Part shown: in pieces, positions 4,484-21,978 of the stretch
Position numbering within the stretch: position 1 is the first letter of the stretch
Layout of the letters: each line of letters opens with the position of its first letter
From: a virus
Taxonomy: Duplodnaviria; Caudoviricetes
Virus record (IMG/VR): IMGVR_UViG_3300042885_001472
Direction: 5' to 3' (one strand)
Length of the DNA stretch: 64,000 nucleotides
The notes under the pieces: generated by a model
The model's database searches: none
Told to the model about the DNA's origin: nothing
The model's input: only the letters and a program-made list of their open reading frames with translations
Made by a program: the position numbers and the translations under genes

Positions 4484-4771
4484 ATGATTTTATTATCCTT
4501 ATTCATTGGTATCATTCTTGGTTATTTTATCAAAAAATATATACCTAAATTAATTAAACATTTTTTAGTAACTAGTAGGTATACTTATAGAGTTAAATTT
4601 AATATCTTTATGGTTGTTCATAAAGAAAACTGTATGGTTAATGAAGTTATCAGTACAAATAGTATTGAAATACTTGTTAAGGGTGAAAATGAAGAAGAAG
4701 TTATTGATTTTATTAATAAAATGGTTGAAAATGAAACCAGAGTTGAAATTGAATCCGTTGAAATCGTATGA
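4484..4771 (+). CDS. hypothetical protein with N-terminal TM helix
   Basis: ORF track; hydrophobic N-terminus. Confidence 0.55.
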   Translation: MILLSLFIGIILGYFIKKYIPKLIKHFLVTSRYTYRVKFNIFMVVHKENCMVNEVISTNSIEILVKGENEEEVIDFINKMVENETRVEIESVEIV

Positions 4772-5187
4772 TAAATAAAAAGGGTAGATATGAGTATGAA
4801 ATTCTTGAGGAATATACCGCTGGAATTGTTTTAACTGGCTCTGAGATAAAAAGTCTTAGGGAAGGTTTATGTGTGATCACCGATTCTTACTGTGTGTTAA
4901 TTAATAATGAATTAATCATCCGGAATATGTATATTGGTCAATATAACCATAACTTTACAACTGAACAAGAAACCAAGAGAGACCGGAAGTTATTAATCAC
5001 CAAAAAAGAAATAAAACGATTAACCACTAAGTTAATTGATAAGGGTATTACAATTATACCTTTAAAAGTTACTGTTGGTAAGTTGGCTAAAATTGAAATC
5101 GCCTTGGCCAAGGGTAAGAATGTTAGGGATAAAAAGATGTCCATAAAACTTCGTGACCTAGATCGGGAGTTTAAACGAAATATTTAA
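4768..5187 (+). CDS. smpB: SsrA-binding protein SmpB
   Basis: NKKGRYEYEILEEYTAGIVLTGSEIKSLREG, RKLL, KIEIALAKGK..DK. Confidence 0.93.
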   Translation: MINKKGRYEYEILEEYTAGIVLTGSEIKSLREGLCVITDSYCVLINNELIIRNMYIGQYNHNFTTEQETKRDRKLLITKKEIKRLTTKLIDKGITIIPLKVTVGKLAKIEIALAKGKNVRDKKMSIKLRDLDREFKRNI

Positions 5188-7671: not shown

Positions 7672-8574
7672 ATGGAAGTGATTATGAATAACATTAAAAA
7701 AGATATTATAAGTTGGTGGAGTGGAGGAATTACCTCACCGGTGGCTTGTAAGTTATCAATAGATATGTTCGGTATTGATCGGGTTAGAATTATAATGATT
7801 GATACTCAGAACGAACATCCGGATACATACCGGTTTAAAACTGATTGTGAGAAATGGTATGGTTTACCAATTGAAATTATTACTGGTATTGGTGAAAAAT
7901 ATGGTAATATTTTTGATGTCTGGAGAAAACATAAGTCATTGAATACAGCCACTGGTGCGATATGTTCTACAAATTTAAAAAGATTAGTTCGTGAAAAATG
8001 GGAGAAAGATAATCCTAATTATACACATCAAGTATTTGGGTTTGAATTTGAAAAGAAAGAATTTAATAGAGCTTTATCAATGTCATTAAATCATGGTGAA
8101 AGGGTTAAAGCGATCTACCCTTTATTAATGTTTGGGTATGATAAAAAACAATGTCTTAAGATTGTTGATGACGCTAAGATTGAAGTTCCAAAAATGTATC
8201 AGTTAGGTTTCCAAAATAATAATTGTTTTTCAACTGGATGTGTTCAGGGTGGGATTGGTTACTGGTAAAAGATGTGTAGAGACTTCCCAGATAAATTTGA
8301 GGTTATGGCTAATTTAGAACATGAATTAACAGAATTAAAGGGTGAACCGGTAACAATGTTAAAAGATCAATCTAATTTAGCTAAAGAATCGTCTAAAATA
8401 GATAAAAAATCAAACTTAGTTTTTCTTAAAAAACATCCATTATATCCAAACCATAAATGTTTAGATGATATGTCCCAAAGGAGTGTTGAACCTCTTTTTG
8501 AGTGTAATGGGATGTGTGGTATAAATGATATGAATGAAAGAACCAGTACTGAAAAAGAGATCAATTACGATTAA
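7672..8574 (+). pseudogene. PAPS-reductase-like (PP-loop) protein interrupted by in-frame TAA at 8266-8268
   Basis: SWWSGGITS, NNNC..GCVQGGIGYW*KMCRDFPDKF; the two track ORFs are in the same frame. Confidence 0.7.
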
Positions 8575-8650
8575 TTTTGGAAAAATATTTTTTTATATGA
8601 AATAAAGTTTATATATTTGTAGAATATTTTAAAACTTAAATTTTATTATT

Positions 8651-8908
8651 ATGACTACAAGAGCCTTACAATTAAGATTAGCTAGATATCAATCTGAACT
8701 TCTTAGTACTAAACACAAATTACTTCGTAGTAACGCTGATAAAAGTGTTATAAAAATTATTGATGACAGAATCTTAAATATTAAGAAAACTAGATTTGAT
8801 TTATCCGTTAATAAAGATAAGGATAAATGTCACCGAGCTAATGTATCTTTTGGTAGTTTTTTTTGGGATAAAAATAAAGAAGAACTTAAAAATATATTTA
8901 CTTATTAA
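8651..8908 (+). CDS. hypothetical protein
   Basis: ORF track; TATATTTG at 8612-8619 upstream. Confidence 0.55.
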   Translation: MTTRALQLRLARYQSELLSTKHKLLRSNADKSVIKIIDDRILNIKKTRFDLSVNKDKDKCHRANVSFGSFFWDKNKEELKNIFTY

Positions 8909-8910
8909 TT

Positions 8911-9060
8911 ATGACAGTAAAACAATTAATTGATAACTTATCAAATATTGATGGTGAAAAGATTAGTCGTAAAAATATTCAAGCACATTCTTTTAAAGAA
9001 ATACGAAAATCTCACAATATTCACAAAATGCTCGTGGTGGGTTCTTTTAATTGGTTATAA
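8911..9060 (+). CDS. 49-aa ORF ending in the first attC core; eroded distal cassette or junction
   Basis: Manual translation MTVKQLIDNLSN..GSFNWL*; stop lies in TTATAAC. Confidence 0.35.
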   Translation: MTVKQLIDNLSNIDGEKISRKNIQAHSFKEIRKSHNIHKMLVVGSFNWL

Positions 9061-9110
9061 CGTTTTGCGGCTAATAGACGTTTCTTAATGTTTATTAGGT
9101 GCGGTTATAA
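9055..9110. repeat. attC-like site 1 (56 bp)
   Basis: TTATAAC gttttgcgg ctaata..tattag gtgcg GTTATAA. Confidence 0.85.
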
Positions 9111-9167
9111 GCTGACGGTTACGAATGTTACTATGAAAAATTAATTTAAAAAAAAACAAATATAAAA

Positions 9168-9446
9168 ATGGAAAATAAGACAGCATTAATTGCAAAAAGA
9201 GATGAGTTACAAAAAGAAATTTATCTTTTAAATACTAAAATAAAAGAGCTTAATAAGATTGAATTATTTGAAAAATACAATGTTAAAATGGGGGACGAAA
9301 TTACTATTGTAGGTAAAAAAGGAGTAATAACAAATAACTGTGGTAGTTATCTTTACTATACCGCTTATAAAAAAGATGGGACTTTAGGCACTAGAGAAAG
9401 TAGGATTTGGAGTTTTGACACGTTTACAAAAACCGTTTCAAAGTAG
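9168..9446 (+). CDS. cassette 1 hypothetical protein
   Basis: ORF between sites 1 and 2. Confidence 0.75.
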   Translation: MENKTALIAKRDELQKEIYLLNTKIKELNKIELFEKYNVKMGDEITIVGKKGVITNNCGSYLYYTAYKKDGTLGTRESRIWSFDTFTKTVSK

Positions 9447-9457
9447 CTACCGTTTGC

Positions 9458-9554
9458 TTATAACGTTTTGCAGCTTTAAGAAGTGGCTGCCTAAAAATTA
9501 CTTCATTTGACAAACAATGCTTATGGCAGACATTTTTTAAAGGTGCTGTTATAA
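9458..9554. repeat. attC-like site 2 (97 bp)
   Basis: TTATAAC gttttgcag ctttaa..ttaaag gtgct GTTATAA. Confidence 0.85.
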
Positions 9555-9574
9555 GCTGATAAAAATTACGGATT

Positions 9575-9772
9575 ATGACCGCAAAAGAATTTGTTTTAGA
9601 AAAATGTCCAAAGGCAAGAGCTGAAAGGCAAGTGTCAGGTAGAATTAAAGGTATGCAGACTGTATATTATTTAATTCGTGAACGAGGGCAAACAATGTAT
9701 ATGGCAGAAGGCAAGAGCGAAAGTAACGCTTGGGTAAATGCTAAAAAGTTTCTATTGGAACGTGAACAGTAG
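9575..9772 (+). CDS. cassette 2 hypothetical protein
   Basis: ORF between sites 2 and 3. Confidence 0.75.
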   Translation: MTAKEFVLEKCPKARAERQVSGRIKGMQTVYYLIRERGQTMYMAEGKSESNAWVNAKKFLLEREQ

Positions 9773-9786
9773 TAATTTTTATTTCC

Positions 9787-9871
9787 CTATAACGGACGGA
9801 GCTTGTGGCTTAAATAAACCAAACAATGCTATTTTAACACTTCCGCTTTTTGCCACAAGGTTGTGTTAGTT
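9787..9871. repeat. attC-like site 3 (85 bp)
   Basis: CTATAAC ggacggag cttgtggc..gccacaag gttgt GTTAGTT; nearly identical to site 10. Confidence 0.85.
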
Positions 9872-9901
9872 TTTAGGCACTTAATTAAACATAAAAAGAA
9901 A

Positions 9902-10276
9902 ATGGAAAAAATAGAAATAGAATTATCAGAAAGCAAATTAAACACATTAAAAAGTGTAGAATATTTAAAAATAAATGATTTAGAGTTTGTTTCAAAAAAT
10001 AAATGCGCTCAATTATGTGCTGATTTTGCAATTGAACATCAAAAAAAGTCACTTAGGAAAACAGCATTAATCGGCTTAATCATAATGTTTTCATCATTTA
10101 TTTTTGCAATAATTGAAACGTTATACTTTGGCTCAAATTGGTATCCACAATCAAAAAATGAAGTAGTGTGTGATTATATAGCTTTATACACTTGCGGATT
10201 AGGCACTTCTTTATTTGGTTTTTGTATCATTAAGCAATTCATAATTGAAGTGTCTGAGAATATTAAGAGTGCTTGA
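9902..10276 (+). CDS. cassette 3 membrane protein (2 TM)
   Basis: ATG 9902 preferred over the track GTG at 9863, which overlaps the attC core. Confidence 0.7.
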   Translation: MEKIEIELSESKLNTLKSVEYLKINDLEFVSKNKCAQLCADFAIEHQKKSLRKTALIGLIIMFSSFIFAIIETLYFGSNWYPQSKNEVVCDYIALYTCGLGTSLFGFCIIKQFIIEVSENIKSA

Positions 10277-10363
10277 AACTAACGGACGAAGCTAACATAC
10301 GTTTGTAAACCACACCTAGCATTTAACCATTATAACTCAAATGTTTGTTAGGTTGTGTTACCA
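10277..10363. repeat. attC-like site 4 (87 bp)
   Basis: AACTAAC ggacgaag ctaaca..tgttag gttgt GTTACCA. Confidence 0.85.
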
Positions 10364-10415
10364 CACGTTTTGAATACTTAAATTAAATATCAATAGAAAA
10401 TTAAAATAAAAAATT

Positions 10416-10670
10416 ATGACACCAAAAGAGAAAGCAACCGAATTATATCAAAAATATTACAATAACTATGGTTACTATGGAATACCAGTAGATGCCGTTA
10501 AACATAGTAAAGAATGTGCTAATATTTGTATTGATGAAATACTGAAATCACAACCAATTGAACCAAATAATAGTAAACCCTTTGGAGTTAAAATACAATC
10601 TGTTAGGCAAAACTTTACTGATGCTGATGAATATTGGAAATTAGTTAAACAAGAACTTGAACTTCTTTAG
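10416..10670 (+). CDS. cassette 4 phage-type hypothetical protein (MTPKEKA.EL)
   Basis: ORF between sites 4 and 5. Confidence 0.75.
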   Translation: MTPKEKATELYQKYYNNYGYYGIPVDAVKHSKECANICIDEILKSQPIEPNNSKPFGVKIQSVRQNFTDADEYWKLVKQELELL

Positions 10671-10690
10671 AATATCCAAAACAAAATGAG

Positions 10691-10821
10691 TGGTAACGTT
10701 TTGCAGCCTTATTTAGTGCGGGCTTAAAAGCACTATGTTAATTTAAAACTGAATATTATGAATAGTAAAAATGTTTCCAACGAAGCCGAAAAACCCGCAT
10801 TGAATAAGGGTGCTGTTAGTG
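10691..10821. repeat. attC-like site 5 (131 bp)
   Basis: TGGTAAC gttttgcag ccttatt..aataagg gtgct GTTAGTG. Confidence 0.85.
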
Positions 10822-10985
10822 GCAGTTATTGTGTGAGAAAACACGATTTGTTTGCTGTAACATATCAAAAAGTAGCTGAAAATTTAAGTAAAGATGAAGC
10901 TGAAAGTATTAAAAACGAAATGCAAACAAAGTCAATAGAGGAGTGTGGTTGCCCTGTACCTGTATTTTTTGTAAGTGAAGTATAA
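10758..10985 (+). CDS. cassette 5 protein starting inside attC 5
   Basis: MNSKNVSNEAEKPALNKGAVS is encoded by the attC. Confidence 0.7.
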   Translation: MNSKNVSNEAEKPALNKGAVSGSYCVRKHDLFAVTYQKVAENLSKDEAESIKNEMQTKSIEECGCPVPVFFVSEV

Positions 10986-10989
10986 TTAC

Positions 10990-11069
10990 CACTAACGGCT
11001 GGATATTTAATCTGTTTGGCTGTCTGAGCAATTATGTAATAGCCAAATTGATTGAATATTTTGTTAGTT
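10990..11069. repeat. attC-like site 6 (80 bp)
   Basis: CACTAAC ggctggatatttaatc..gattgaatatttt GTTAGTT. Confidence 0.8.
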
Positions 11070-11107
11070 TACAGTAAAATAAACCAAATAAATTAAAATA
11101 AAAAAAT

Positions 11108-11497
11108 ATGAACAGAGAAATTAAGTTTAGAGCATGGAATGGTAAGGAAATGCGATGCGATGTTAATATAAATGATGGCAAACCTGTAAGGAAAGGCTAT
11201 CAATGGTTTAATGAATCAAATGATATTCATAACTCAGAGCCTATGCAACTTATAGGGTTAAAGGACAAAAATGGAGTTGAAATTTATGAAGGTGATATTT
11301 TAGAAGATAAAAATAAAAACTTTATGTATAATGTATTTAGGGTTGCAGGAGGTTTTGCAATAAATACGCATCAAAATGACTTTAATAGAAAAACTCCATT
11401 TTACACATCTTTTGATATGCAAACATCTTCATATATTAATGGAAATTGTGAGGTAAAAGGTAATATTTATCAACCTATATTAACATTAGAAAAGTAA
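11108..11497 (+). CDS. cassette 6 YopX family protein
   Basis: REIKFRAW..MQLIGLKDKNGVEIYEGDI..EVKGNIY. Confidence 0.9.
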   Translation: MNREIKFRAWNGKEMRCDVNINDGKPVRKGYQWFNESNDIHNSEPMQLIGLKDKNGVEIYEGDILEDKNKNFMYNVFRVAGGFAINTHQNDFNRKTPFYTSFDMQTSSYINGNCEVKGNIYQPILTLEK

Positions 11498-11520
11498 ACA
11501 TCAATGGTTTATTTTATTGA

Positions 11521-11600
11521 AACTAACGGCATCAAGCTAAAAGCTGACCGCCTTTATAAGCGGTTTGGTGATGGCGGTTTGATTTTAGGTTGGGTTATAA
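11521..11600. repeat. attC-like site 7 (80 bp)
   Basis: AACTAAC ggcatcaag ctaaaa..ttttag gttgg GTTATAA. Confidence 0.85.
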
Positions 11601-11651
11601 GCTGACGGTTACGAATGTTACTATGGAAAATTAATTTAAAAAAACATACAG

Positions 11652-11996
11652 ATGGAAAACAAAGGAGAATATTTGGGTTTATGTAATTTAAGCTCTTGTA
11701 CAACACACAAACCAGCAACTTATTATAATTACGGTACATCAAAATACTATTGTAAAGAATGTGCTGAAAGATTAAATTCTGATGAATATAATCAACGTGA
11801 TGCAATGCGTATGTTTGGACATGATTTATGTATTGAGGAATCAGTAAGACCTAAACCATTAAATGAAATTATTGAAAAACAAAATTACCTTCAATTTACT
11901 GAACCTTACATTATGGAATTAGCTTCTGATTTTAGACCAACAGTTAGACATAGCCCTTATATTAAATCTGAACCAAGTCAACAAAATATAATTTAG
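11652..11996 (+). CDS. cassette 7 Cys-containing hypothetical protein
   Basis: CNLSSC..YCKEC..HDLC. Confidence 0.7.
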   Translation: MENKGEYLGLCNLSSCTTHKPATYYNYGTSKYYCKECAERLNSDEYNQRDAMRMFGHDLCIEESVRPKPLNEIIEKQNYLQFTEPYIMELASDFRPTVRHSPYIKSEPSQQNII

Positions 11997-12087
11997 CTAA
12001 TCCAGACGAAGGATATGCTGATTTTGATAATGCACAAAAAGAGTGTAATAAGCTAAACAAAAATGTTTCAAAGTAGCTACCGTTTGC

Positions 12088-12141
12088 TTATAACGTCTGA
12101 TGATAAACAATCGTTTTAATGTTGTTTATCATTTGTTATAT
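12088..12141. repeat. attC-like site 8 (54 bp)
   Basis: TTATAAC gtctg atgataaacaa..ttgtttatcat tt GTTATAT. Confidence 0.8.
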
Positions 12142-12164
12142 TTAGTAAAAAATAATTTATACAT

Positions 12165-12344
12165 ATGAAATACCAAGCACTTAAAAAAGAATATTTTGCA
12201 GTTTATGAAAAAGAACCAAGACATCAGAATGAAAAAAATGGTGTAATACTTTCACCATATAATACGAAAGAAGATGCTGAAAAAGCGAGAGTTAAATATG
12301 GTTATGGTGATGATAATTATTATGTAGATAAACTCATAAATTAA
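12165..12344 (+). CDS. cassette 8 hypothetical protein (59 aa)
   Basis: Manual translation MKYQALKKEYFAVYEKE..YVDKLIN*. Confidence 0.65.
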   Translation: MKYQALKKEYFAVYEKEPRHQNEKNGVILSPYNTKEDAEKARVKYGYGDDNYYVDKLIN

Positions 12345-12354
12345 TTTTTATTGA

Positions 12355-12410
12355 ATATAACGTTTTGCAGCTAATAGCCGTTTCTTAATGGATATTAGGT
12401 GCGGTTATAT
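12355..12410. repeat. attC-like site 9 (56 bp)
   Basis: ATATAAC gttttgcag ctaata..tattag gtgcg GTTATAT; near copy of site 1. Confidence 0.85.
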
Positions 12411-12466
12411 TTAGTTGCCTAGAATAGCAATGCGGAGTGATAATTTAATAATTAAAAATAAAACAA

Positions 12467-12868
12467 ATGAAAACATTAACCATAAAACAACCGTGGGCTA
12501 GTTTGATTGCAAACGGAATAAAGGACATTGAAAATAGAACTTGGAAAACAAATCATAGAGGTAAAATTTATATTCATGCTGCTCAAATAAATTCAAAGGA
12601 TTGGGAGGACTTAATAAATTTACCCGATAATCAAAGAAATGAATTTTTTGAATTTGTTAAACACAAAATACTTAACACAAAATCGAATAGTAGCATTATT
12701 GGCGAAGTTGAAATAGTAGATTGTGTTCAAGATAGTAAATCAATTTGGGCTTTACCAAACCATTATCATTGGGTTTTAAAAAATGCTATAATTTACGATG
12801 AGCCTATTTTAAACGTAAAAGGTAAATTATCATTGTGGGAGTACACAGGTGCGGTGGGAGGCAATTGA
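12467..12868 (+). CDS. cassette 9 ASCH domain protein
   Basis: LTIKQPWASLIANGIKDIENRTW..RGKIYIHAA..VKGKLSLW. Confidence 0.9.
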   Translation: MKTLTIKQPWASLIANGIKDIENRTWKTNHRGKIYIHAAQINSKDWEDLINLPDNQRNEFFEFVKHKILNTKSNSSIIGEVEIVDCVQDSKSIWALPNHYHWVLKNAIIYDEPILNVKGKLSLWEYTGAVGGN

Positions 12869-12953
12869 ATATAACGGACGGAGCTTGTGGCTGAAATAAA
12901 CCTAACAATGCTATTTTAACACTTCCGCTTTTTGCCACAAGGTTGTGTTAGTT
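12869..12953. repeat. attC-like site 10 (85 bp)
   Basis: ATATAAC ggacggag cttgtggc..gccacaag gttgt GTTAGTT. Confidence 0.85.
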
Positions 12954-12987
12954 TACAGTAAAATAAACCAAATTAAAATAAAAAAAT

Positions 12988-13377
12988 ATGAATAGAAAAA
13001 TTAAATTTAGAGCTTGGGATAGTTTTTATAAAATGATGATACATTCATCTTATAAAGATTTTTCGGTATTATCAGAATTTTTTAAAGAATTAGAAGATAG
13101 AAAAGACAATGATTGCAAAATAATGCAATTTACAGGATTAAAGGATAAAAATGGAGTTGATATTTATGAGGGCGACATTATTAAATGCTCATTAGCTACT
13201 GAACCCGAAGATAAAGGATTTATTTGTTTATGGCGAAATTTTAAATGGGAATTTTGTAATGTTAGATTTAAAGATGACGAATCATTTAATTTAACCGACT
13301 TTGATTATTTAACTGTAAAAACAGAAGTAATTGGAAACATATATGAGAATGCGGATATGTTAACATCAGAAAAGTAA
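12988..13377 (+). CDS. cassette 10 YopX family protein
   Basis: RKIKFRAWD..MQFTGLKDKNGVDIYEGDI..EVIGNIYEN. Confidence 0.9.
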   Translation: MNRKIKFRAWDSFYKMMIHSSYKDFSVLSEFFKELEDRKDNDCKIMQFTGLKDKNGVDIYEGDIIKCSLATEPEDKGFICLWRNFKWEFCNVRFKDDESFNLTDFDYLTVKTEVIGNIYENADMLTSEK

Positions 13378-13400
13378 ACATCAATGGTTTATTTTATTGA

Positions 13401-13479
13401 AACTAACGGTTGGATATTGGCTTAGTTTGGCTTTCTAACCACTTATATAATGCCAAATTGAGCCAATATTTTGTTAGTA
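13401..13479. repeat. attC-like site 11 (79 bp)
   Basis: AACTAAC ggttggatattggct..agccaatatttt GTTAGTA. Confidence 0.85.
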
Positions 13480-13561
13480 TTTCGTTTACTTTTACTTTTT
13501 TAGGGTAGCATTAGAAAATTAAACTATCTGATTTATAGCACTTTACAAAAATAATGTAAAA

Positions 13562-13597
13562 TATATTTGTGTCCATCAAATACATTATGTACATTTA
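13562..13597 (+). promoter_or_regulatory. cassette 11 internal promoter
   Basis: TTTG 13566-13569, 20 nt, TACATTTA 13590-13597; TATATTTG at 13562 also fits. Confidence 0.5.
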
Positions 13598-13629
13598 CAC
13601 TCAGATAACAACAACTAAAAAATAAGATT

Positions 13630-13785
13630 ATGAAATTATTAAATTTAACAGTAAGAAACATTAAAGGAGAATTAGCAACTGGATGTTATAGCCACACTAA
13701 AAATAAGGTTAAATTTTACGTTGTTGTTTGGAATAATACTCAATTTTTTGGTACTGATTTAGAAACAATTTTTAACACTTTATAA
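13630..13785 (+). CDS. cassette 11 ORF a (51 aa)
   Basis: Manual translation MKLLNLTVRNIKGELATG..TIFNTL*. Confidence 0.55.
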   Translation: MKLLNLTVRNIKGELATGCYSHTKNKVKFYVVVWNNTQFFGTDLETIFNTL

Positions 13786-13786
13786 T

Positions 13787-14011
13787 ATGAAGATTAAACA
13801 AGAAAAAATAGAAATAAAAGTAAATATATTTTTTTTAGAAGAAAATGAAGATGTTTTATCTGAGATAAATAAAGCAATTAATAAAAAAACATTTACAGTA
13901 ATTGTAAAAAATAAAGTTTATCATGTTGCTGGACATGGAATGTTAAAAGATTTAGATAATTTAAAAGATGCTTTATTAGATATTAAGTTTTTAACAAATG
14001 CCTTATTATGA
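13787..14011 (+). CDS. cassette 11 ORF b, hypothetical
   Basis: ORF track. Confidence 0.65.
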   Translation: MKIKQEKIEIKVNIFFLEENEDVLSEINKAINKKTFTVIVKNKVYHVAGHGMLKDLDNLKDALLDIKFLTNALL

Positions 14012-14250
14012 AAACTCCAATATCACAAACAACAGCTAAAACAAACGCTAAAAAATACAATGATTATTTCACAGCTAATGAACAAACTTATAAAACAATG
14101 AAAAGAAGTAAACGCATAGAATTAACGGAAAGCACTATTAAGTATTTAGCAAAAAAAGCTATTGACGAAGGGACAAGTTTTAAACCTTATGTCGAACAAA
14201 TTTTGGAAAGTTTAGCCAATACACAGGTGGGCAGGAAAAAAGAAAAGTAA
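14008..14250 (+). CDS. cassette 11 ORF c, ribbon-helix-helix-like regulator
   Basis: KRIELTESTIKYLAKKAIDEGTSFKPYVEQILE. Confidence 0.55.
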   Translation: MKTPISQTTAKTNAKKYNDYFTANEQTYKTMKRSKRIELTESTIKYLAKKAIDEGTSFKPYVEQILESLANTQVGRKKEK

Positions 14251-14255
14251 ATGGA

Positions 14256-14349
14256 TACTAACAGTCGGCAATATGAAACGGTTGCCTTATAAGACGTTTC
14301 AAAATATAACTCAGTTTTCTGGCAACTGTTTTTATATTGCTTGTTATAG
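14256..14349. repeat. attC-like site 12 (94 bp)
   Basis: TACTAAC agtcg gcaatat..atattgc tt GTTATAG with inner gttgcc/ggcaac stem. Confidence 0.85.
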
Positions 14350-14367
14350 CCAGTTAATTTTAACGAT

Positions 14368-14598
14368 ATGTACAAAATAGTAAAAGAAATTCACACTTAT
14401 AAACAAGGTAGGATAAAATTTAGAATACACGAAAGATTTTTATGGAGATGGATACCAAGTGAAAGTTTTTCTGAATATGAAACCTATGAATTGGCAGAAA
14501 AAGCAATTATAGAAAAACTGAACGGCAAACATGGTGGTATTGTTGAATTGAAAAATGATGTTTATAAATTTTATCCGTATTCATTACCGATGCCTTAA
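14368..14598 (+). CDS. cassette 12 hypothetical protein
   Basis: ORF between sites. Confidence 0.75.
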   Translation: MYKIVKEIHTYKQGRIKFRIHERFLWRWIPSESFSEYETYELAEKAIIEKLNGKHGGIVELKNDVYKFYPYSLPMP

Positions 14599-14602
14599 TT
14601 GG

Positions 14603-14678
14603 CTATAACGGTTTGCAGCTAATAGACGGGCGGTTGAAACATAGTAGATGTCCGCCTGTTTATTAGGTGCTGTTATAG
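14603..14678. repeat. attC-like site 13 (76 bp)
   Basis: CTATAAC ggtttgcag ctaata..tattag gtgct GTTATAG. Confidence 0.85.
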
Positions 14679-14731
14679 GTAGGTTGTAACGAATGTTTAA
14701 TTAATACACAATATAAAAAAATAATAATAAT

Positions 14732-14914
14732 ATGATAGAAATAATAATTTGGCTAATTTTTTTCCCATTAGCAACAACAATAAATAGATACTTTTTAGAT
14801 AGAAATAAAAAGGATAGAAATGAGGAAGTAACATCTAAAGAAGTAAAAGACAAATTAGATTTTTTTGAGCTTGCCGTTTTTGTGATAGTGCTTATAATTT
14901 TAATCAAACGCTAA
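14732..14914 (+). CDS. cassette 13 small membrane protein
   Basis: two hydrophobic segments. Confidence 0.65.
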   Translation: MIEIIIWLIFFPLATTINRYFLDRNKKDRNEEVTSKEVKDKLDFFELAVFVIVLIILIKR

Positions 14915-14942
14915 AATGTTTCTAAATGATACCACAACTTAC

Positions 14943-15023
14943 CTATAACGTTAAGAAGCCTTGCTTAGTTTGGCTTTTTAACACACATAGCACTTGCCAA
15001 ATTGAGCAAGGGTTGTGTTAGTA
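14943..15023. repeat. attC-like site 14 (81 bp)
   Basis: CTATAAC gttaagaag ccttgct..agcaagg gttgt GTTAGTA. Confidence 0.85.
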
Positions 15024-15068
15024 TTAGGTGGCTTAAAAGTGAATATTAATTTTAAATAAAAATAAAAA

Positions 15069-15278
15069 ATGGAATACGGAATATTAAAAGTAGGTTGCAA
15101 AGTAAAATATACTGATGAAGCTAAAAAAGAATTGCCAACAGTTTTTAAAGATATAACAAAGGATAAAGTAAAAACTGTAAAATGGATTAGTAAAAATCAA
15201 GAGAACTGTGATTTTGTGGATGGTGACAGTTGTGATATTTACTGGTTAGAACTCGTAGAAGATTCTAAAGCCACTTGA
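15069..15278 (+). CDS. cassette 14 hypothetical protein
   Basis: ORF between sites; stop lies in the terminal inverted repeat. Confidence 0.75.
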   Translation: MEYGILKVGCKVKYTDEAKKELPTVFKDITKDKVKTVKWISKNQENCDFVDGDSCDIYWLELVEDSKAT

Positions 15279-15367
15279 TACTAACGGTATCAAGCTAAAA
15301 GCAGTTGCTAAACCAACCTAATATATTTGAGCGTTAACTCGCAAATTGATTTTAGGTTGTGTTAGGA
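15279..15367. repeat. attC-like site 15 (89 bp)
   Basis: TACTAAC ggtatcaag ctaaaa..ttttag gttgt GTTAGGA. Confidence 0.85.
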
Positions 15368-15394
15368 TTAGTTAAATTTTAAAAATAAAAAATT

Positions 15395-15589
15395 ATGTAT
15401 ATAACAAAAAGCGGTAAAGTTGTAATGTATAATAATGATGGTTACGATTATACTGAAGTTTTTAATAGTGATAGAAATTGGGAAGATAAATCAGGTATGT
15501 ACTTAAACTACTGTAAAAATTGCGAAAAACATTTTTTTGGTAATAAGTATAGAATAATATGCAAAAAATGTAGTAACGGTAAAATTTAA
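15395..15589 (+). CDS. cassette 15 zinc-ribbon protein
   Basis: CKNC..CKKC. Confidence 0.7.
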   Translation: MYITKSGKVVMYNNDGYDYTEVFNSDRNWEDKSGMYLNYCKNCEKHFFGNKYRIICKKCSNGKI

Positions 15590-15593
15590 TTGA

Positions 15594-15653
15594 ACCTAAC
15601 GGTTTGCAGCTAATAGACGTTTTTCTTAAAATGGATATTAGGTGCTGTTATAG
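15594..15653. repeat. attC-like site 16 (60 bp)
   Basis: ACCTAAC ggtttgcag ctaata..tattag gtgct GTTATAG. Confidence 0.85.
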
Positions 15654-15696
15654 GTAGGTTGTAACGAATGTTTAATTAATACACAATATAAAAAAT

Positions 15697-16044
15697 ATGG
15701 AAATAAGCGAATTAAGATTAGGTAATTATGTAATGTATATTGATAATTATATATTGCCAGTTACTACCGATACATTTTATTGGATATCCGAATGTGTTAG
15801 AACTGAAGATGATTACAAACCAATAGAATTAACAGAAGATATACTTTTTAAATGCGGGTTTAAATTGGCTATTGATGAAAATGTTTATACGTTAGATGAT
15901 ACAATTGAATTAACGCAAACTGATTATGGAAATAGTTTTTATTTTATGGGCAATTTTATAAAATCAGATATAAAATATTTACACCAATTACAGAACTTGT
16001 ATTTTGCAATAACTGATATTGAGTTAAATGTATCAAAAATATAA
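15697..16044 (+). CDS. cassette 16 'ELRxGN' phage family protein
   Basis: ELRLGNY..KPIELTE..HQLQNLYF; paralogue of 55436-56606 genes. Confidence 0.8.
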   Translation: MEISELRLGNYVMYIDNYILPVTTDTFYWISECVRTEDDYKPIELTEDILFKCGFKLAIDENVYTLDDTIELTQTDYGNSFYFMGNFIKSDIKYLHQLQNLYFAITDIELNVSKI

Positions 16045-16064
16045 ATAACAAAGCACCAACTTAC

Positions 16065-16140
16065 TTATAACGTTTTGCAGCTAATGGCTGGCGGCTCTAA
16101 GCGGTTATATAATGCCGCTTGACATTAGGTGCTGTTATGT
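16065..16140. repeat. attC-like site 17 (76 bp)
   Basis: TTATAAC gttttgcag ctaatg..cattag gtgct GTTATGT. Confidence 0.85.
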
Positions 16141-16201
16141 TGGTGTGTCGGAATGTGTGTGAGGCAGTTTTATTTTATTAATTTTTAAAAAAGCGAAGGA
16201 A

Positions 16202-16384
16202 ATGAATATACCAAATAGTTACGCAAAAGCAATAGTAGCCGACATGAAGGCTAAAATAAAAAAACATGAAAAGACTTGTTATTACAATGATAATTTATGT
16301 GAAGGTAAAGTTAGTAGAGTAAATTCACATCATGTTTTTTTATGTGAAAAATGCTTGAATGAATACAATAATATAAAAGATTAA
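16202..16384 (+). CDS. cassette 17 ORF a, Cys-rich
   Basis: ORF track. Confidence 0.65.
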   Translation: MNIPNSYAKAIVADMKAKIKKHEKTCYYNDNLCEGKVSRVNSHHVFLCEKCLNEYNNIKD

Positions 16385-16387
16385 ACT

Positions 16388-16660
16388 ATGAAAAAAGCAG
16401 AAGAAATACTAAAACAAAACTGCATAAAGCAACAATGGGACAAACAAATACTAACAGATGACTTTACATTGGAAGTTACTATACCATCAATGGAAGAATA
16501 CGCTAATCAATTCAAAGTAAAAATGTGGGGTTGCTATGCTTGTGGTAAATTACTTAGAATTTATGCTACACAAAAAGAAGCGGATGAAGCAAGAACAAGA
16601 TGGAGTACCGAATGTATTGTTATAGTAAAGGAAGTAGTTGTTGGTGACGGGGGTGCGTAG
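16388..16660 (+). CDS. cassette 17 ORF b, hypothetical
   Basis: ORF track. Confidence 0.7.
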   Translation: MKKAEEILKQNCIKQQWDKQILTDDFTLEVTIPSMEEYANQFKVKMWGCYACGKLLRIYATQKEADEARTRWSTECIVIVKEVVVGDGGA

Positions 16661-16689
16661 GCTTTTAAAAATTAATAAAATAAAATTGA

Positions 16690-17008
16690 ACATAACGGTT
16701 GCGGATATATGAATGTAAAAAATTAATAATCAGAACGATGATAACAACACAAAATTTAACAGAATTAGGTTTTAGTGAGATACTTAATGTATTCACTGGA
16801 AAACAAGTTTGGGTTTTAGGTGAAGAAGATAGAGAGATATGTGGAAACCCTTGTAGATTACCAATACTTTATTACAACATAGAAACCCAAACTTGTAAAG
16901 TAGTTAGGGGTGAATTTTGTGTTGTTCAACGAGAATGTAAATCAGAAGAAGAAATTAGAAAGTTTGTAGAATCTATTAATTTTTTATTTCATATATCCGT
17001 TGTTATAA
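16690..17008. repeat. attC-like site 18 (319 bp, mostly coding)
   Basis: ACATAAC ggtt gcggatatatgaa..ttcatatatccgt t GTTATAA. Confidence 0.75.
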
Positions 17009-17097
17009 ATAGTAAAAAACCTATCGAACAAGTATTATCCGAAGCGATTAAAGAATCTTATGATAAGATAAAAGACAATTTAGAACCACCACTTTAA
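16738..17097 (+). CDS. cassette 18 protein encoded mainly inside attC 18
   Basis: ATG 16738; reads through GTTATAA 17002 as HISVVINSKK. Confidence 0.7.
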   Translation: MITTQNLTELGFSEILNVFTGKQVWVLGEEDREICGNPCRLPILYYNIETQTCKVVRGEFCVVQRECKSEEEIRKFVESINFLFHISVVINSKKPIEQVLSEAIKESYDKIKDNLEPPL

Positions 17098-17110
17098 GGT
17101 TTTTTATTGT

Positions 17111-17187
17111 TTATAACGGTTTGCAGCTAATAAATCGGGCGATGGAAATATATGTAATTTCCGCCTGTTTATTAGCTGCTGTTATAG
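17111..17187. repeat. attC-like site 19 (77 bp)
   Basis: TTATAAC ggtttgcagctaata..tattagctgct GTTATAG. Confidence 0.85.
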
Positions 17188-17231
17188 GTAGGTTGTAACG
17201 AATGTTTAATTGAAACTTTAATATAAAAAAT

Positions 17232-17510
17232 ATGGAAAATATAAGTTTAAAAGATAAAGTAAGCGATATACTTGAATATTGGGAAAATGATTATGATGAA
17301 ACTTGTGATGCTACCGCTATTTCAAAAATAGAAGCATTGATAAAAGAGGAAAATCAAAAATTGAAAAAAGAAAATGATATTTATAAATCTTTTATATGTC
17401 ATGTAAAAAATAGTTTTAAAATGATTAATGATGATATAAGTGAAATAGATGTTTATAGAAGTTTAAGGACAAGAGCTGATGATATTTTAAATAACAATTT
17501 TCCTTTTTAA
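17232..17510 (+). CDS. cassette 19 hypothetical coiled-coil protein
   Basis: ORF between sites. Confidence 0.75.
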   Translation: MENISLKDKVSDILEYWENDYDETCDATAISKIEALIKEENQKLKKENDIYKSFICHVKNSFKMINDDISEIDVYRSLRTRADDILNNNFPF

Positions 17511-17548
17511 TTAACACAAAAAATGTTTCTAAATGATACACAACTTAC

Positions 17549-17657
17549 CTATAACGCTTTGCAGCTTTGAGCCGTTTACCAAATATTAATAACAAAAAAA
17601 TAAATAACGAATATGAATAACAGAAAAATAAAAAATGGCTTAAAGGTGTTGTTAGTG
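17549..17657. repeat. attC-like site 20 (109 bp)
   Basis: CTATAAC gctttgcag ctttgagcc..ggcttaaag gtgtt GTTAGTG. Confidence 0.85.
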
Positions 17658-17843
17658 GCTGTTTTATTTGTAAAATGTACTACAAATAAATTGATTATTA
17701 CTGAATGTCAAAGAGCTAATTTAACAAGCCTTTTTATTCAAAAAATGGAAATTGGAAAAGTTTATAAAATCAATTTATGTGATGAGTATTTTAACTACTC
17801 ATTTGATGGCGAAAAATATACTTTGGAACGATATAAAAAATAG
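17613..17843 (+). CDS. cassette 20 putative lipoprotein starting inside attC 20
   Basis: MNNRKIKNGLKVLLVAVLFVKC signal-peptide-like N-terminus. Confidence 0.6.
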   Translation: MNNRKIKNGLKVLLVAVLFVKCTTNKLIITECQRANLTSLFIQKMEIGKVYKINLCDEYFNYSFDGEKYTLERYKK

Positions 17844-17844
17844 C

Positions 17845-17929
17845 CACTAACGTTCCTCAAATATGAGTAGTAAATTTTTCTATTGAGATTTGGAAAATCA
17901 AAATTTATTTCTTATATTTGTTGTTATAT
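17845..17929. repeat. attC-like site 21 (85 bp)
   Basis: CACTAAC gttcct caaatatgag..cttatatttg tt GTTATAT. Confidence 0.8.
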
Positions 17930-17968
17930 TTAGTTTTCAGTTTGTTTTACCTTAAAAAAATATAAATT

Positions 17969-18214
17969 ATGATTAAAAAGAATGAAGAACAATTTGATAG
18001 TGGTGGTATAATACTTAAACACACTTTTCTTTTAGGTTTCGATGAACTAAGAATACCAACCGAAGATATTACAGAAGATATGATAGATACATATGTAAAA
18101 GAAAAATCATCAGAATTTGAATGGGAATTTAAGTTTTTTCTGATGATGAAATTAGGTTATATTGGGAAAGAAGGTGATATTTGGATAAAAGAACCAAAAC
18201 AAACTGAAAATTGA
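17969..18214 (+). CDS. cassette 21 hypothetical protein
   Basis: C-terminal KQTEN* is encoded by the cassette terminal inverted repeat. Confidence 0.75.
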   Translation: MIKKNEEQFDSGGIILKHTFLLGFDELRIPTEDITEDMIDTYVKEKSSEFEWEFKFFLMMKLGYIGKEGDIWIKEPKQTEN

Positions 18215-18344
18215 ATATAACGTTTTGTATTGGCGAAGAAGCGGAATTTTACCACTGAAGTTGATACGAAGCACCAATGCTTATTTACCTACAAATGTTC
18301 ATACGAAGCACTAAAACCGCTTTTTTGCCAATACTTTGTTAGTG
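18215..18344. repeat. attC-like site 22 (130 bp)
   Basis: ATATAAC gtttt gtattggc gaagaagcgg..ccgcttttttgccaatac ttt GTTAGTG. Confidence 0.85.
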
Positions 18345-18412
18345 GCTGATGCGGATTTTTAGCACTCATTTTCAGTAAGTTAGAAAATATTTTCAAAATA
18401 AAAGAAAATAAA

Positions 18413-18444
18413 TTTGGTTTGTATTGTTTTTGTATATACATTTG
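18413..18444 (+). promoter_or_regulatory. cassette 22 promoter facing the integrase
   Basis: TTTG 18413-18416, 20 nt, TACATTTG 18437-18444 (Bacteroidetes consensus). Confidence 0.7.
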
Positions 18445-18470
18445 CGTTACAATAATTAAATAAAAACAAA

Positions 18471-18749
18471 ATGACAAACGAACAATTAAACGCTATGAGC
18501 GTATCAGATTTAAGAGAATTAAATTCAAGAGTAATAGCTTATATTAAGTTTAAAAACTCAATGGCTAGTGGTGAAAACAAATCCAAAATATCAGTAGGTA
18601 TGACGGTAACGATTAAAACCAATAATCCTCTATTATTAGATTCTGTTTTTACTTTGGAAAAGATAAATAAAAAAAATGCTGTTTGTAGAGATATTAAAAC
18701 TCAACAAACTTGGAATGTTTTAATTTGTAACGTTATAGAAAAACCATAA
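18471..18749 (+). CDS. cassette 22 ORF a, hypothetical
   Basis: ORF track. Confidence 0.75.
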   Translation: MTNEQLNAMSVSDLRELNSRVIAYIKFKNSMASGENKSKISVGMTVTIKTNNPLLLDSVFTLEKINKKNAVCRDIKTQQTWNVLICNVIEKP

Positions 18750-18916
18750 TGGAAAAGAAAAAACGAGATGTAAGCCTTCCAAAAAGGTTTAATTCAGAAG
18801 ATGTAAATAAATGGCAAGAACAAGCTAATTTAACAACTGGTGGTAATCTTACCTTATGGATGGAAAACACATTGAATAACGCTGTAAAGAAGCAAAATGT
18901 CAAATCGAAGCAGTAA
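18749..18916 (+). CDS. cassette 22 ORF b (55 aa), RHH/CopG-like
   Basis: Manual translation MEKKKRDVSLPKRFNSEDVNKWQEQAN..GNLTLWMENTLN; TAATG coupling. Confidence 0.55.
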   Translation: MEKKKRDVSLPKRFNSEDVNKWQEQANLTTGGNLTLWMENTLNNAVKKQNVKSKQ

Positions 18917-18928
18917 CGTAGCATTTGC

Positions 18929-18960
18929 CACTAACTATTATATATAAACAAGTATAGTCT
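18929..18960 (-). other. attI-like site
   Basis: Lone CACTAAC core with no partner arm, about 46 bp upstream of the integrase; bottom strand GTTTATATATAATA-GTTAGTG. Confidence 0.6.
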
Positions 18961-18981
18961 AAACCCTTTAATAACAATACT

Positions 18982-19820: not shown

Positions 19821-20231
19821 ATGAAAATAGAAATACCATTATACGATATTAAAATTAAGTTTTACTTTGACTATGATTTAGGTAAACCCATTAAAAAGAT
19901 AAAGAAAAAACATAATAAGAAAAAACTTTATAATGTAAGAAGTAAAATTGATTTTTATGGAATTGTTATTGGTGAGTTTATACCAAAGAATAAGTTAATT
20001 TATGTTTTAATAGAAAAAACTAAAAATGGTATTAATGTGGATACATTAACTCACGAAATATATCATTTAACAACCAAAATAATGGAACACAATAACTTCA
20101 AATTTAATAAAACAGATGAACCTTTTGCGAATTTAAATGGGAAGTTAAATTCAATTATTATGTGTGAATTAATTAAACGAAAGGTGAAATTATATTACCC
20201 AATTGAAACTAAAAAAATAAAAATAAAATAA
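19821..20231 (+). CDS. HExxH-motif protein
   Basis: TLTHEIYH. Confidence 0.55.
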   Translation: MKIEIPLYDIKIKFYFDYDLGKPIKKIKKKHNKKKLYNVRSKIDFYGIVIGEFIPKNKLIYVLIEKTKNGINVDTLTHEIYHLTTKIMEHNNFKFNKTDEPFANLNGKLNSIIMCELIKRKVKLYYPIETKKIKIK

Positions 20232-20234
20232 ATT

Positions 20235-20441
20235 ATGAAAAAATCAGAACAAATTGAAGAAATTGGGACTGCGATTAGTGAATGTTTGAATAAGTTGTAT
20301 GAAACTAAAGAACATTTATCATTTAACCCATTCCCTAAGATGTATCACCCAACAGAGGATTCTTTAAACATACCATTGATTGTTGATGGTAACAAAATTA
20401 TTATTGAAGTAAAATCAGTTTTAGATTATAATATGGTGTGA
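20235..20441 (+). CDS. hypothetical protein
   Basis: ORF track. Confidence 0.6.
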   Translation: MKKSEQIEEIGTAISECLNKLYETKEHLSFNPFPKMYHPTEDSLNIPLIVDGNKIIIEVKSVLDYNMV

Positions 20442-20968: not shown

Positions 20969-21286
20969 ATGTCTAATACATATTACAATCCCTGGTACTA
21001 TTATATTGATAAAACTTTAATTAAAAAGAAAAAACCTTGTGTACCTGGGAATCAAATACATTTACACAATCTTAATGGTTGTTATACCGTACACCATGTG
21101 GAAGTTGGTGGGTTCTATATTCTTAAGGATAGAGTTTATATTAAAAAACCTTGGAGTGAATTTAAATGTCTTAAGGGTTATGGTGAGAGTGTTGAATCAA
21201 AAATGAAAAAAAATATTAAATCATTATTACGTTATAATGATGAGATAAGAACTAATCTTAATTGTATGTTAAATTTAATAAGATAA
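20969..21286 (+). CDS. hypothetical protein
   Basis: ORF track. Confidence 0.6.
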   Translation: MSNTYYNPWYYYIDKTLIKKKKPCVPGNQIHLHNLNGCYTVHHVEVGGFYILKDRVYIKKPWSEFKCLKGYGESVESKMKKNIKSLLRYNDEIRTNLNCMLNLIR

Positions 21287-21978
21287 ATATGATAAATATG
21301 ATAAATATGATAAAAAACAAAACACCCTATGTGGGTAAAATAAAGTTAAAATTTGAGAAATATCCTCACTACACTGGTAGAAGTGTCTTGAATAAAGTAC
21401 ATATCAATTTGGGGTTTACTAAACTGGTTTCAAGGATGTATCCCAAAAGAACAAAATATGGTTGGGTTGTTGACACCTATAAACTTAGATTAATTGAGAA
21501 TTTTACCGGTGGTATTGTTGATGAACATTGGGTTGATAAACGTCAACCTAAAGAGGAATTTACACTCCACAACTCATTTTTAAGTAAAGATGGTAATTAT
21601 ATAGGTGACATTGAAAAGGGTTGGTGGTATTATGAAAATAATTTTAAAGTTTGTGATGATTATCCTCACGGTGTGGCTGAAGTCTGGGGTTCTGGAGAAC
21701 TAAAGAGTTATTATGGTTACACCCATAGAGGTGGTAGTTATTTCACCATTAATGATAGATTGTTTGATGAAAACTGGTTACCACAGGTTTTTGAAATTAG
21801 AACCAAATGGGTTGATGATTATGAAGAATTCAGTAATACTAAATTAGAAGGATTTGATCAGGAAACTATAGGTAAATTGATTAGCTACGTACCATTTAAA
21901 GAACGTGGTGATAAGGTTATAGAAACTATGGAAGAAGCTAAACAAGCTGCTAAAAATCTTTCTAAATATTTATCATAA
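21262..21978 (+). CDS. hypothetical protein
   Basis: ORF track; start uncertain because ATAAATATG is repeated three times at 21283-21309. Confidence 0.65.
   Translation: MYVKFNKINMINMINMIKNKTPYVGKIKLKFEKYPHYTGRSVLNKVHINLGFTKLVSRMYPKRTKYGWVVDTYKLRLIENFTGGIVDEHWVDKRQPKEEFTLHNSFLSKDGNYIGDIEKGWWYYENNFKVCDDYPHGVAEVWGSGELKSYYGYTHRGGSYFTINDRLFDENWLPQVFEIRTKWVDDYEEFSNTKLEGFDQETIGKLISYVPFKERGDKVIETMEEAKQAAKNLSKYLS

Follow-up and report, generated by a model that had tools for sequence, protein, structure and literature searches.

Complementary cassette ends in a phage-borne array of integron-like sites beside a Xer-like recombinase gene

The complementarity of a gene cassette's own two ends is established integron biology and is said to have emerged from the work of Hall, Stokes and colleagues. 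Here we describe an array with this property in a phage, IMG/VR record IMGVR_UViG_3300042885_001472 (Duplodnaviria; Caudoviricetes), which was analysed as one stretch of 64,000 nucleotides (nt), hereafter the window, to whose full length all coordinates refer. The array consists of 22 hairpin sites alternating with small open reading frames (ORFs) on the + strand and ends beside a gene for a Xer-like tyrosine recombinase of 266 amino acids (aa) (Table 1). As in classical integrons (IntI, attI and attC; class 1 as well as sedentary chromosomal), the sites are AAC...GTT hairpins with an unpaired spacer and an inner stem, the cassettes have complementary own ends but hybrid cores within the array, and a conserved sequence adjoins the recombinase gene, a candidate counterpart of the site that separates integrase and newest cassette in integrons. 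The strand favoured for folding has the larger number of G:T pairs and is oriented towards the integrase gene in both systems (PMC5027507). Unlike classical integrons, the phage array is accompanied by a Xer-like enzyme without the IntI insert, and its ORFs lie on the putative folding strand and point to the attI-like junction, so that each hairpin precedes its gene and a Pc-type promoter would be unable to drive the ORFs. Its outer (R) arms are longer and carry a fixed G.T at position 11, there are extra unpaired bases on the 5' arm, and the carrier is a large, virulent-looking phage.

A Xer-type reaction on a folded strand is known from CTX-phi, where XerC and XerD recombine the attP hairpin: a single strand folds so that its paired arms mimic a double-stranded core site, which has arms of ∼11 bp. 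An arm of 12–15 bp here fits this, but attP is a single site that integrates the whole phage into dif, with no cassettes, array or dedicated enzyme. Sites of attC type and cassettes have been reported in phage genomes, some of them recombined by IntI1 (Qi et al. 2023, PMC9892861); those cases, identified with IntegronFinder, are bacterial integron fragments or clusters of at least two attC sites without an integrase, whereas here a 22-cassette array adjoins its own phage-family recombinase and junction in a layout kept in ∼35 contigs. The nearest phage analogue is the PeSL cassette of T4-type phages, which is marked by a repeated sigma-70 promoter and a GC-rich stem-loop. PeSL cassettes are similar in having small ORFans, hyperplastic regions and repeated stem-loop flanks, are likewise shuffled between phages, and form mini-circles; they recombine by homology, with crossover points within the element and without an integrase (PMC2839356, PMC4122927). 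In the present array, by contrast, the breaks in homology between copies of a unit coincide precisely with TAAC and GTTA, covariation is seen between the ends, and the array is linked to a gene for a tyrosine recombinase. Our literature search found no paper on such an array with its own recombinase in large phages.

Arrays with an insert-less Xer-like 'integron integrase' are also found in Bacteroidota, for example on the Chryseobacterium sp. SNU WT5 plasmid NZ_CP041688 (locus L048), which encodes the nearest plasmid-borne relative of the phage enzyme (44% identical and collinear); for this relative, too, matches to the integron-integrase profile are confined to the regions flanking the insert. 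It is accompanied by AAC...GTT hairpin sites and by units with complementary ends (GTTATAC/GTATAAC, GTTACCT/AGGTAAC). The plasmid system differs in its bacterial carrier, in the place of the array, which follows a recombinase gene transcribed in its direction, and in ∼70 extra N-terminal residues of the enzyme. One site of 138 nt is present three times in the plasmid array (11743–17540), and an IS110 and a reverse transcriptase of a group II intron are located in this array or next to it.

A unit was defined as the stretch from the G of an opening GTT through the C of the next closing AAC, which resulted in 22 units of leader, ORF and trailer. The 7-mer that opens a unit is the exact reverse complement of the 7-mer that closes it in 19/22 units and matches at 6/7 in the other three (units 2, 15 and 16), while the two cores of one and the same site match perfectly in only 4/22. 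These scripted counts are identical to those of an earlier note on this DNA, and the examples given there were found in place (10357 with 10691–10697; 16134 with 16690–16696; 17923–17948 with 18196–18221). In the permutation test that the note had suggested, trailers were shuffled among leaders: the mean was 2.95 perfect pairs and the maximum 12, and 0/100,000 shuffles reached 19. Past the GTT, the anchored complementarity score was 11.3 for a unit's own ends versus 2.7 for the two flanks of one site.

The wider dataset comprised arrays upstream of homologous recombinases in related IMG/VR contigs (148 units for the counts of ORF position; loci bear L numbers). Among 141 further cassettes from these contigs, 110 had perfectly matched ends and 11 matched at 6/7, with within-site cores perfect in only 13/147. 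A control set of IntI arrays behaved likewise (29/49 own-end versus 9/59 within-site). The pairing of own ends is therefore real and far past chance. Ends that belong together, and not to the adjacent site, are the known footprint of a circular, re-inserted unit, and this interpretation, which was that of the earlier note, is supported and correct in kind, with circles as the presumed intermediate. The shuffling it had proposed is also borne out, since cassette content is nearly all different between related phages and the same cassette is found in different contexts. Self-pairing ends alone are textbook integron logic and ordinary for integrons; what is new is the setting, a phage-borne array whose apparent recombinase is Xer-like and lacks the insert regarded as the defining feature of integron integrases.

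The anatomy of the paired ends was assessed on 143 units with a core match of at least 6/7. The paired fraction was 0.92–1.0 at positions 1–8, 0.74–0.76 at positions 9–10, 0.73–0.86 at positions 12–15 and ∼0.5 at positions 16–20, and fell to background by about position 24. At positions 6–9 and 13–15 all four Watson-Crick pair types occur and 74–97% of units are paired, versus 28–41% in column shuffles, which argues that the helix is maintained by compensatory change. Position 11 is an exception, with T in the trailer of 142/143 units and G in the leader of 107/143 (22/22 and 17/22, respectively, within the window), a pair that reads as G.T on the + strand and as a C.A mismatch on the − strand. 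The resulting consensus is A-T-T-R-N4-TAAC for the trailer arm and GTTA-N4-Y-A-G-T for the leader arm. The invariant T and near-invariant G at position 11 offer a single-base target for testing how an insert-less enzyme might recognize a folded site. In unit 21, the pairing of the arms is interrupted by a 3-nt TAG/TTG, which corresponds to G.T, A-T and G.T on the + strand. The claim that the ends often encode the last residues and the stop codon also held, in that 99/148 units have the stop of their main ORF no more than 21 nt from the end of the unit, and the trailer arm there is coding sequence. Copying of an ORF's end in the leader of the same unit is relevant to how cassettes are born.

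For comparison of arm length, IntI1 was aligned with another integron integrase from a plasmid, and this alignment was used to retrieve 80 genomic loci with true IntI genes (L051–L130), from which 8 arrays with at least four detectable sites and 32 cassettes with the expected own-end match were obtained. Pairing in this control was 0.91–1.0 to position 7, 0.72–0.81 at positions 8–10 and 0.5 at positions 11–12, with background from position 13. In gapped anchored alignments, the paired extent had a median of 19 nt in the phage set (quartiles 15–26) and 10.5 nt in the control (quartiles 9–12; Mann-Whitney p 1e-11). The suggestion that the ends are longer than in classical cassettes thus stands, but the implied three- to four-fold excess shrinks to about two-fold, because true IntI arrays are themselves complementary to about 10–12 nt, past the canonical 7-bp core.

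Despite this difference in length, the predicted stability of the own-end duplex was equal in the two sets (−12.88 kcal/mol for phage versus −12.23 kcal/mol for control, p 0.22; nearest-neighbour predictions at 37 °C), with an arm G+C content of 29% and 51%, respectively. Shuffled partners reached −4.3 kcal/mol and the hybrid arms as present in the array −4.6 kcal/mol. Within the phage set, the paired extent dropped from a median of 26 nt to 14–15 nt as the G/C count of the inner arm rose (Spearman rho −0.53, p 1e-11). A control that kept the first 15 nt and used foreign distal sequence gave a rho of only −0.13, which speaks against chance matches in AT-rich sequence as the source of the correlation. 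At positions 16–30, units with at most three G/C in the inner arm had 8.6 matches (6.1 in the control), and those with at least five had 5.8 (6.0 in the control). The arm therefore extends past position 15 only where its inner part is AT-rich, and the extra length most likely compensates for the low G+C through stabilizing selection on duplex stability. In both systems, arm length seems to be exchanged for G+C content such that the R-arm duplex stays near −12 to −13 kcal/mol; this is a simple rule that can be tested on integron-type sites.

When aligned, the phage enzyme shows the catalytic motifs R, K, H-x-x-R, H and Y; it has the two-domain make-up of Xer proteins (Pfam Phage_integrase and a SAM-like N-terminal domain) and whose closest solved structures are the archaeal XerA proteins 4a8e and 5hxy. 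The integron-integrase profile TIGR02249 matched only at 3–181 and 260–313, under its cut-off. In the alignment to VchIntIA (2a3v), residues 174–213 of the query (40 aa) stand opposite residues 177–264 of the chain (88 aa); XerA (4a8e) aligns without a break. As read from these alignments, the phage recombinase is without the IntI-specific insert and is not of the insert-bearing IntI type. Close homologues, all of ∼266 aa, are very abundant in metagenomes, and the 42 relatives that were fetched all came from IMG/VR viral contigs. The recombinase region had no nucleotide match in the GenBank phage collection.

The earlier note had placed the crossover in the opening GTT. Four lines of evidence, namely the junction, the ORF crossings, the co-travelling hairpins and the strand asymmetry, place it instead in the closing 5'-AAC-3' of the + strand. 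At the end of the array, the last unit has a variable trailer ending in TAAC (18932–18935), followed by the conserved TATTATATATAAAC. A junction of TAAC followed by TAT(T/C)ATATAT, attI-like by sequence conservation only, adjoins the recombinase gene, and the form TAAC followed by TA..ATATAT lies 37–94 nt ahead of the recombinase start in 32/43 sequences (42 loci and the window), with a related form in four further diverged loci. In 43/148 units, an ORF that starts within the hairpin upstream extends over GTTA (in the window at 10758, 16738 and 17613), and in 1/148 an ORF extends over TAAC. Three cassettes recur together with the hairpin upstream of them but with another upstream neighbour and another downstream hairpin: unit 6 (L141), unit 21 (L225 and L227) and unit 8 (L222, immediately at the attI-like junction). 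In integrons, promoterless ORFs point away from attI and are read from Pc, and attC lies downstream of its gene; here, the hairpin moves with the gene downstream of it. Lastly, the + strand hairpin is more stable than the − strand hairpin in 160/167 sites and has 2.64 G:T pairs versus 0.46. In the IntI control (intI on the left), the bottom strand is more stable by 2.34 kcal/mol, with 1.34 versus 0.76 G:T pairs, so that the favoured strand points towards the integrase gene in both. In classical sites, the recombined bottom strand is the more stable and G:T-richer one, and a recombination point in AAC has been described (PMC5027507). The crossover is thus probably in the closing AAC of the + strand, with each hairpin belonging to its downstream gene, a position for the cut that follows the analogy with integrons. 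Moving the crossover to the other end of the unit, with the hairpin ahead of the gene, alters how such arrays ought to be annotated and where cassettes ought to be excised for use in assays.

An integron-type folded site, with the complementary ends as halves of its R arm, a + strand cut in AAC and an arm length set by stability, is in our view the probable explanation of these data. The mobile unit would be a hairpin together with the gene downstream of it. On circular excision, its own trailer (...A-T-T-R-N4-TAAC) would meet its own leader (GTTA-N4-Y-A-G-T...) across the hairpin and form a duplex, while a site in the array would be a hybrid of two units in which only the invariant TAAC and GTTA match. 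The folding strand would be the + strand, that is, the sense strand of the ORFs, running 5' to 3' towards the recombinase gene. If it is cut between AA and C of 5'-AAC-3', by analogy with integrons, new units would enter at the conserved site beside the recombinase, TAAC followed by TATTATATAT. The arm would be ∼15 bp in nearly all units and longer if AT-rich, its length varying because duplex stability (∼−13 kcal/mol, as in classical integrons) is held constant. For the insert-less Xer-like enzyme, the fixed G.T at position 11 may serve in recognition or mark the strand.

Several observations weigh against this explanation. The G:T excess falls on the mRNA-sense strand and could reflect RNA structure, and the first-ATG rule used for ORF starts can overcall starts inside hairpins. 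Unit 8 has other upstream hairpins in L016 and L221, as does unit 21 in L226, so hairpins are sometimes replaced. Furthermore, 370 of 448 site pairs with interiors at least 80% identical differ on both flanks; a few generic hairpins are reused across many cassettes, which weakens arguments from linkage. The assembled contigs of 24 public runs yielded no circle or excision junction, although these contigs break at repeated hairpins, and their joints, with short sides of 21–37 nt at repeats, are evidence neither for nor against circles or precise deletions. The classical control is small (32 cassettes from 8 arrays) and was found by a home-made heuristic, and duplex energies were predicted at 37 °C although the phage is from a lake. 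Assortment of hairpin interiors independently of units, with crossover at both cores, was considered and set aside, as most of its signal is reuse of generic hairpins; the three cassettes that occur in independent contexts argue for linkage with the hairpin upstream.

Classical polarity, in which the − strand would fold, the crossover would fall between G and TT of the opening core and the hairpin would belong to the upstream gene, is unlikely on this evidence. It would account for the left hairpin arm having 3–4 more unpaired bases after AAC than the right, like classical top strands, and for homology between copies of one unit also beginning exactly at GTTA. Unit 21 in L225 and L226 fits it too, since the downstream hairpin is common to both and the upstream hairpins differ, although that downstream hairpin is the commonest generic type. 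Units 6 and 8 keep no downstream hairpin, and neither does the window copy of unit 21. Classical polarity would also make the recombinase-proximal junction the far, oldest end of the array, yet it is at the AAC end beside the recombinase that a junction is conserved, the − strand hairpin is nearly always the less stable one, and 43 ORFs begin in an upstream hairpin against only one that ends in a downstream one. A reading without any site-specific circle has poorer prospects still, and we regard it as very improbable: the hairpins would be regulatory stem-loops (terminator/promoter modules like PeSLs), units would be swapped by homologous recombination, and the pairing of ends would act in mRNA as a 5'-3' stem stabilizing each cistron. 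In its favour, pairs compatible with G.U are on the mRNA-sense strand; many phages share generic hairpins, some of them 100% identical, which would supply the homology, and PeSL-flanked ORFans do make mini-circles without an integrase (PMC2839356). However, it is precisely at TAAC and GTTA, and not within the hairpins, that copies cease to be homologous. A homologous tyrosine recombinase gene and a conserved junction stand at the array end in ∼35 contigs, the invariant AAC/GTT cores are those of integron sites, and a unit's own ends lie 116–790 nt apart, an unusual span for a conserved mRNA stem.

The slimmest prospects belong to the idea that the long inverted ends are a birth mark, left by a templated fold-back that copied the ORF end into the leader, with length decaying later. 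In two thirds of units, the non-coding leader does complement the end of the unit's own ORF, final codons and stop included, some arms are perfect across 23 nt, and there is no obvious selective path to at least 20 matched bases for each new cassette. Against this, length tracks arm G+C and stability equals that of classical sites, which points to selection on stability, and identical leader-trailer pairs hold unrelated ORFs (units 13 and 19; L141:720–1019), so that ends are not always copies of the ORF.

Beyond the folded-site mechanism itself, the array may represent a widespread family of large freshwater phages with their own integron-like gene capture, in which site recognition and the choice of strand would depend on the constant-stability R arm and the G.T wobble, fixed 11 nt from the cut, rather than on extrahelical bases read by the IntI insert; genes would lie on the folding strand, each hairpin ahead of its gene. 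We hold this broader proposal tentatively, at somewhat less than even chances. If true, the integron mechanism can do without the IntI insert, and G+C content could be used to predict how long the arm of any integron-type site is.

Generic hairpins and end pairs recur in several forms. The 40-nt interior of hairpin 'A' (12095–12134) has copies with 0–2 differences and different flanks in L009, L010, L222 and L225–L227. In three of four contig sets from lake metagenomes, the bin that holds it exceeds neighbouring bins in depth by a factor of 30–100 (482, 166 and 149 versus ∼5). Near-identical leader-trailer pairs (∼50 nt and ∼37 nt) enclose unrelated ORFs at 14672–14949 and 17181–17555 of the window and at L141:720–1019, and likewise at 9104–9464 and 11594–12094 of the window. 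These look as if genes had been swapped inside fixed ends, which a site-specific crossover at TAAC does not explain. The interior of the site 19 hairpin (17556–17650) and its counterpart at L141:1920–2015 encode an ORF start and the N-terminus MNN(R/K)(K/E)IKNGLKVLL, which continues into different gene bodies in the two phages, like a common N-terminal exon-like piece. At 16690–17117, most of a 119-aa ORF (16738–17097) sits in the variable loop of site 17, and the ORF ends in a 116-nt unit.

Hairpins were located with a spacer-tolerant stem scan, and 23 site coordinates (start of AAC and start of GTT) were set by script and by eye. A strict stem score anchored at AAC and read inwards found zero sites, because the unpaired spacer breaks the stem, and unconstrained minimum-free-energy folding of all AAC...GTT pairs was dropped as too noisy. 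Classical attC sites are imperfect hairpins closed by RYYYAAC ... GTTRRRY, with a central unpaired spacer and an inner stem. The 22 imperfect hairpins measure 46–311 nt and share an attC-like architecture, with NNNTAAC at the opening, GTTANNN at the closing and an inner stem (Table 1). The 9.9-kb array holds 21 of the 27 stem-scan hits in the whole window, and all its ORFs point to the junction and recombinase.

Table 1. Sites, selected paired arms and recombinase gene of the array, in window coordinates.
Feature	Position	Strand	Remarks
Array, 22 hairpin sites and 22 units	9055–18935	+	ORFs all +
Site 0	9055–9110	+	TTATAAC ... GTTATAA; leftmost recognizable hairpin
Site 1	9458–9554	+	stem scan
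Site 2	9787–9871	+	interior almost identical to site 9
Site 3	10277–10363	+	stem scan
Site 4	10691–10821	+	ORF 10758–10985 begins within hairpin and runs through GTTA
Site 5	10990–11069	+	interior moves with unit 6 (together 99% identical in L141)
Site 6	11521–11600	+	stem scan
Site 7	12088–12141	+	generic hairpin 'A'
Site 8	12355–12410	+	stem scan
Site 9	12869–12953	+	stem scan
Site 10	13401–13479	+	stem scan
Site 11	14256–14349	+	stem scan
Site 12	14603–14678	+	stem scan
Site 13	14943–15023	+	stem scan
Site 14	15279–15367	+	stem scan
Site 15	15594–15653	+	stem scan
Site 16	16065–16140	+	stem scan and 7-mer recount
Distal leader arm of unit 17	16168–16190	+	perfect 23-nt complement of 16663–16685, beyond a 26-nt bulge
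Distal trailer arm of unit 17	16663–16685	+	
Site 17	16690–17008	+	311 nt; loop contains most of ORF 16738–17097
Site 18	17111–17187	+	stem scan
Site 19	17549–17657	+	ORF 17613–17843 begins within hairpin
Site 20	17845–17929	+	hairpin 'B'; moves with unit 21 in L225/L227
Leader arm of unit 21	17923–17948	+	pairs with 18196–18221 over 26 nt
Trailer arm of unit 21	18196–18221	+	codes for last five residues and TGA stop of ORF 17969–18214
Site 21	18215–18344	+	stem scan
attI-like junction	18929–18981	+	47 nt ahead of recombinase start
Xer-like tyrosine recombinase, 266 aa	18982–19782	+	catalytic motifs in alignment

The genes flanking the array and recombinase (7672–9060 and 19821–20441 of the window) were not conserved in the 42 related loci (L001–L042), so synteny was unable to define the left boundary of the array. 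Only ORF 8911–9060 recurs (76% aa identity, L031:517–627), again right before a first site. The recombinase-array module sits in differing neighbourhoods, and the array may reach left of 9055. A 15-mer common to ∼8607 and ∼19007, AAAGTTTATATATTT, was rejected as an element boundary because, by a rough estimate, ∼27 repeated 15-mers are expected by chance in this AT-rich window.

The window has a low G+C content (26–34%) and is transcribed from the + strand from 1 to ∼42 kb. Its phage-type genes include those for a repeat-rich fibre-like protein, SmpB, a Tad6-type Thoeris inhibitor and a PolB-type exonuclease. The open-ended ORF at 1–1699 has many copies of an SNTIGN(N/D/E)Y-type repeat and probably encodes a fibre or beta-helix protein; it had no match in Pfam or NCBIfam. 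SmpB, which is full-length and scores over the NCBIfam cut-off, and the Tad6-type Thoeris inhibitor are encoded at 4768–5187 and 21262–21978, respectively.

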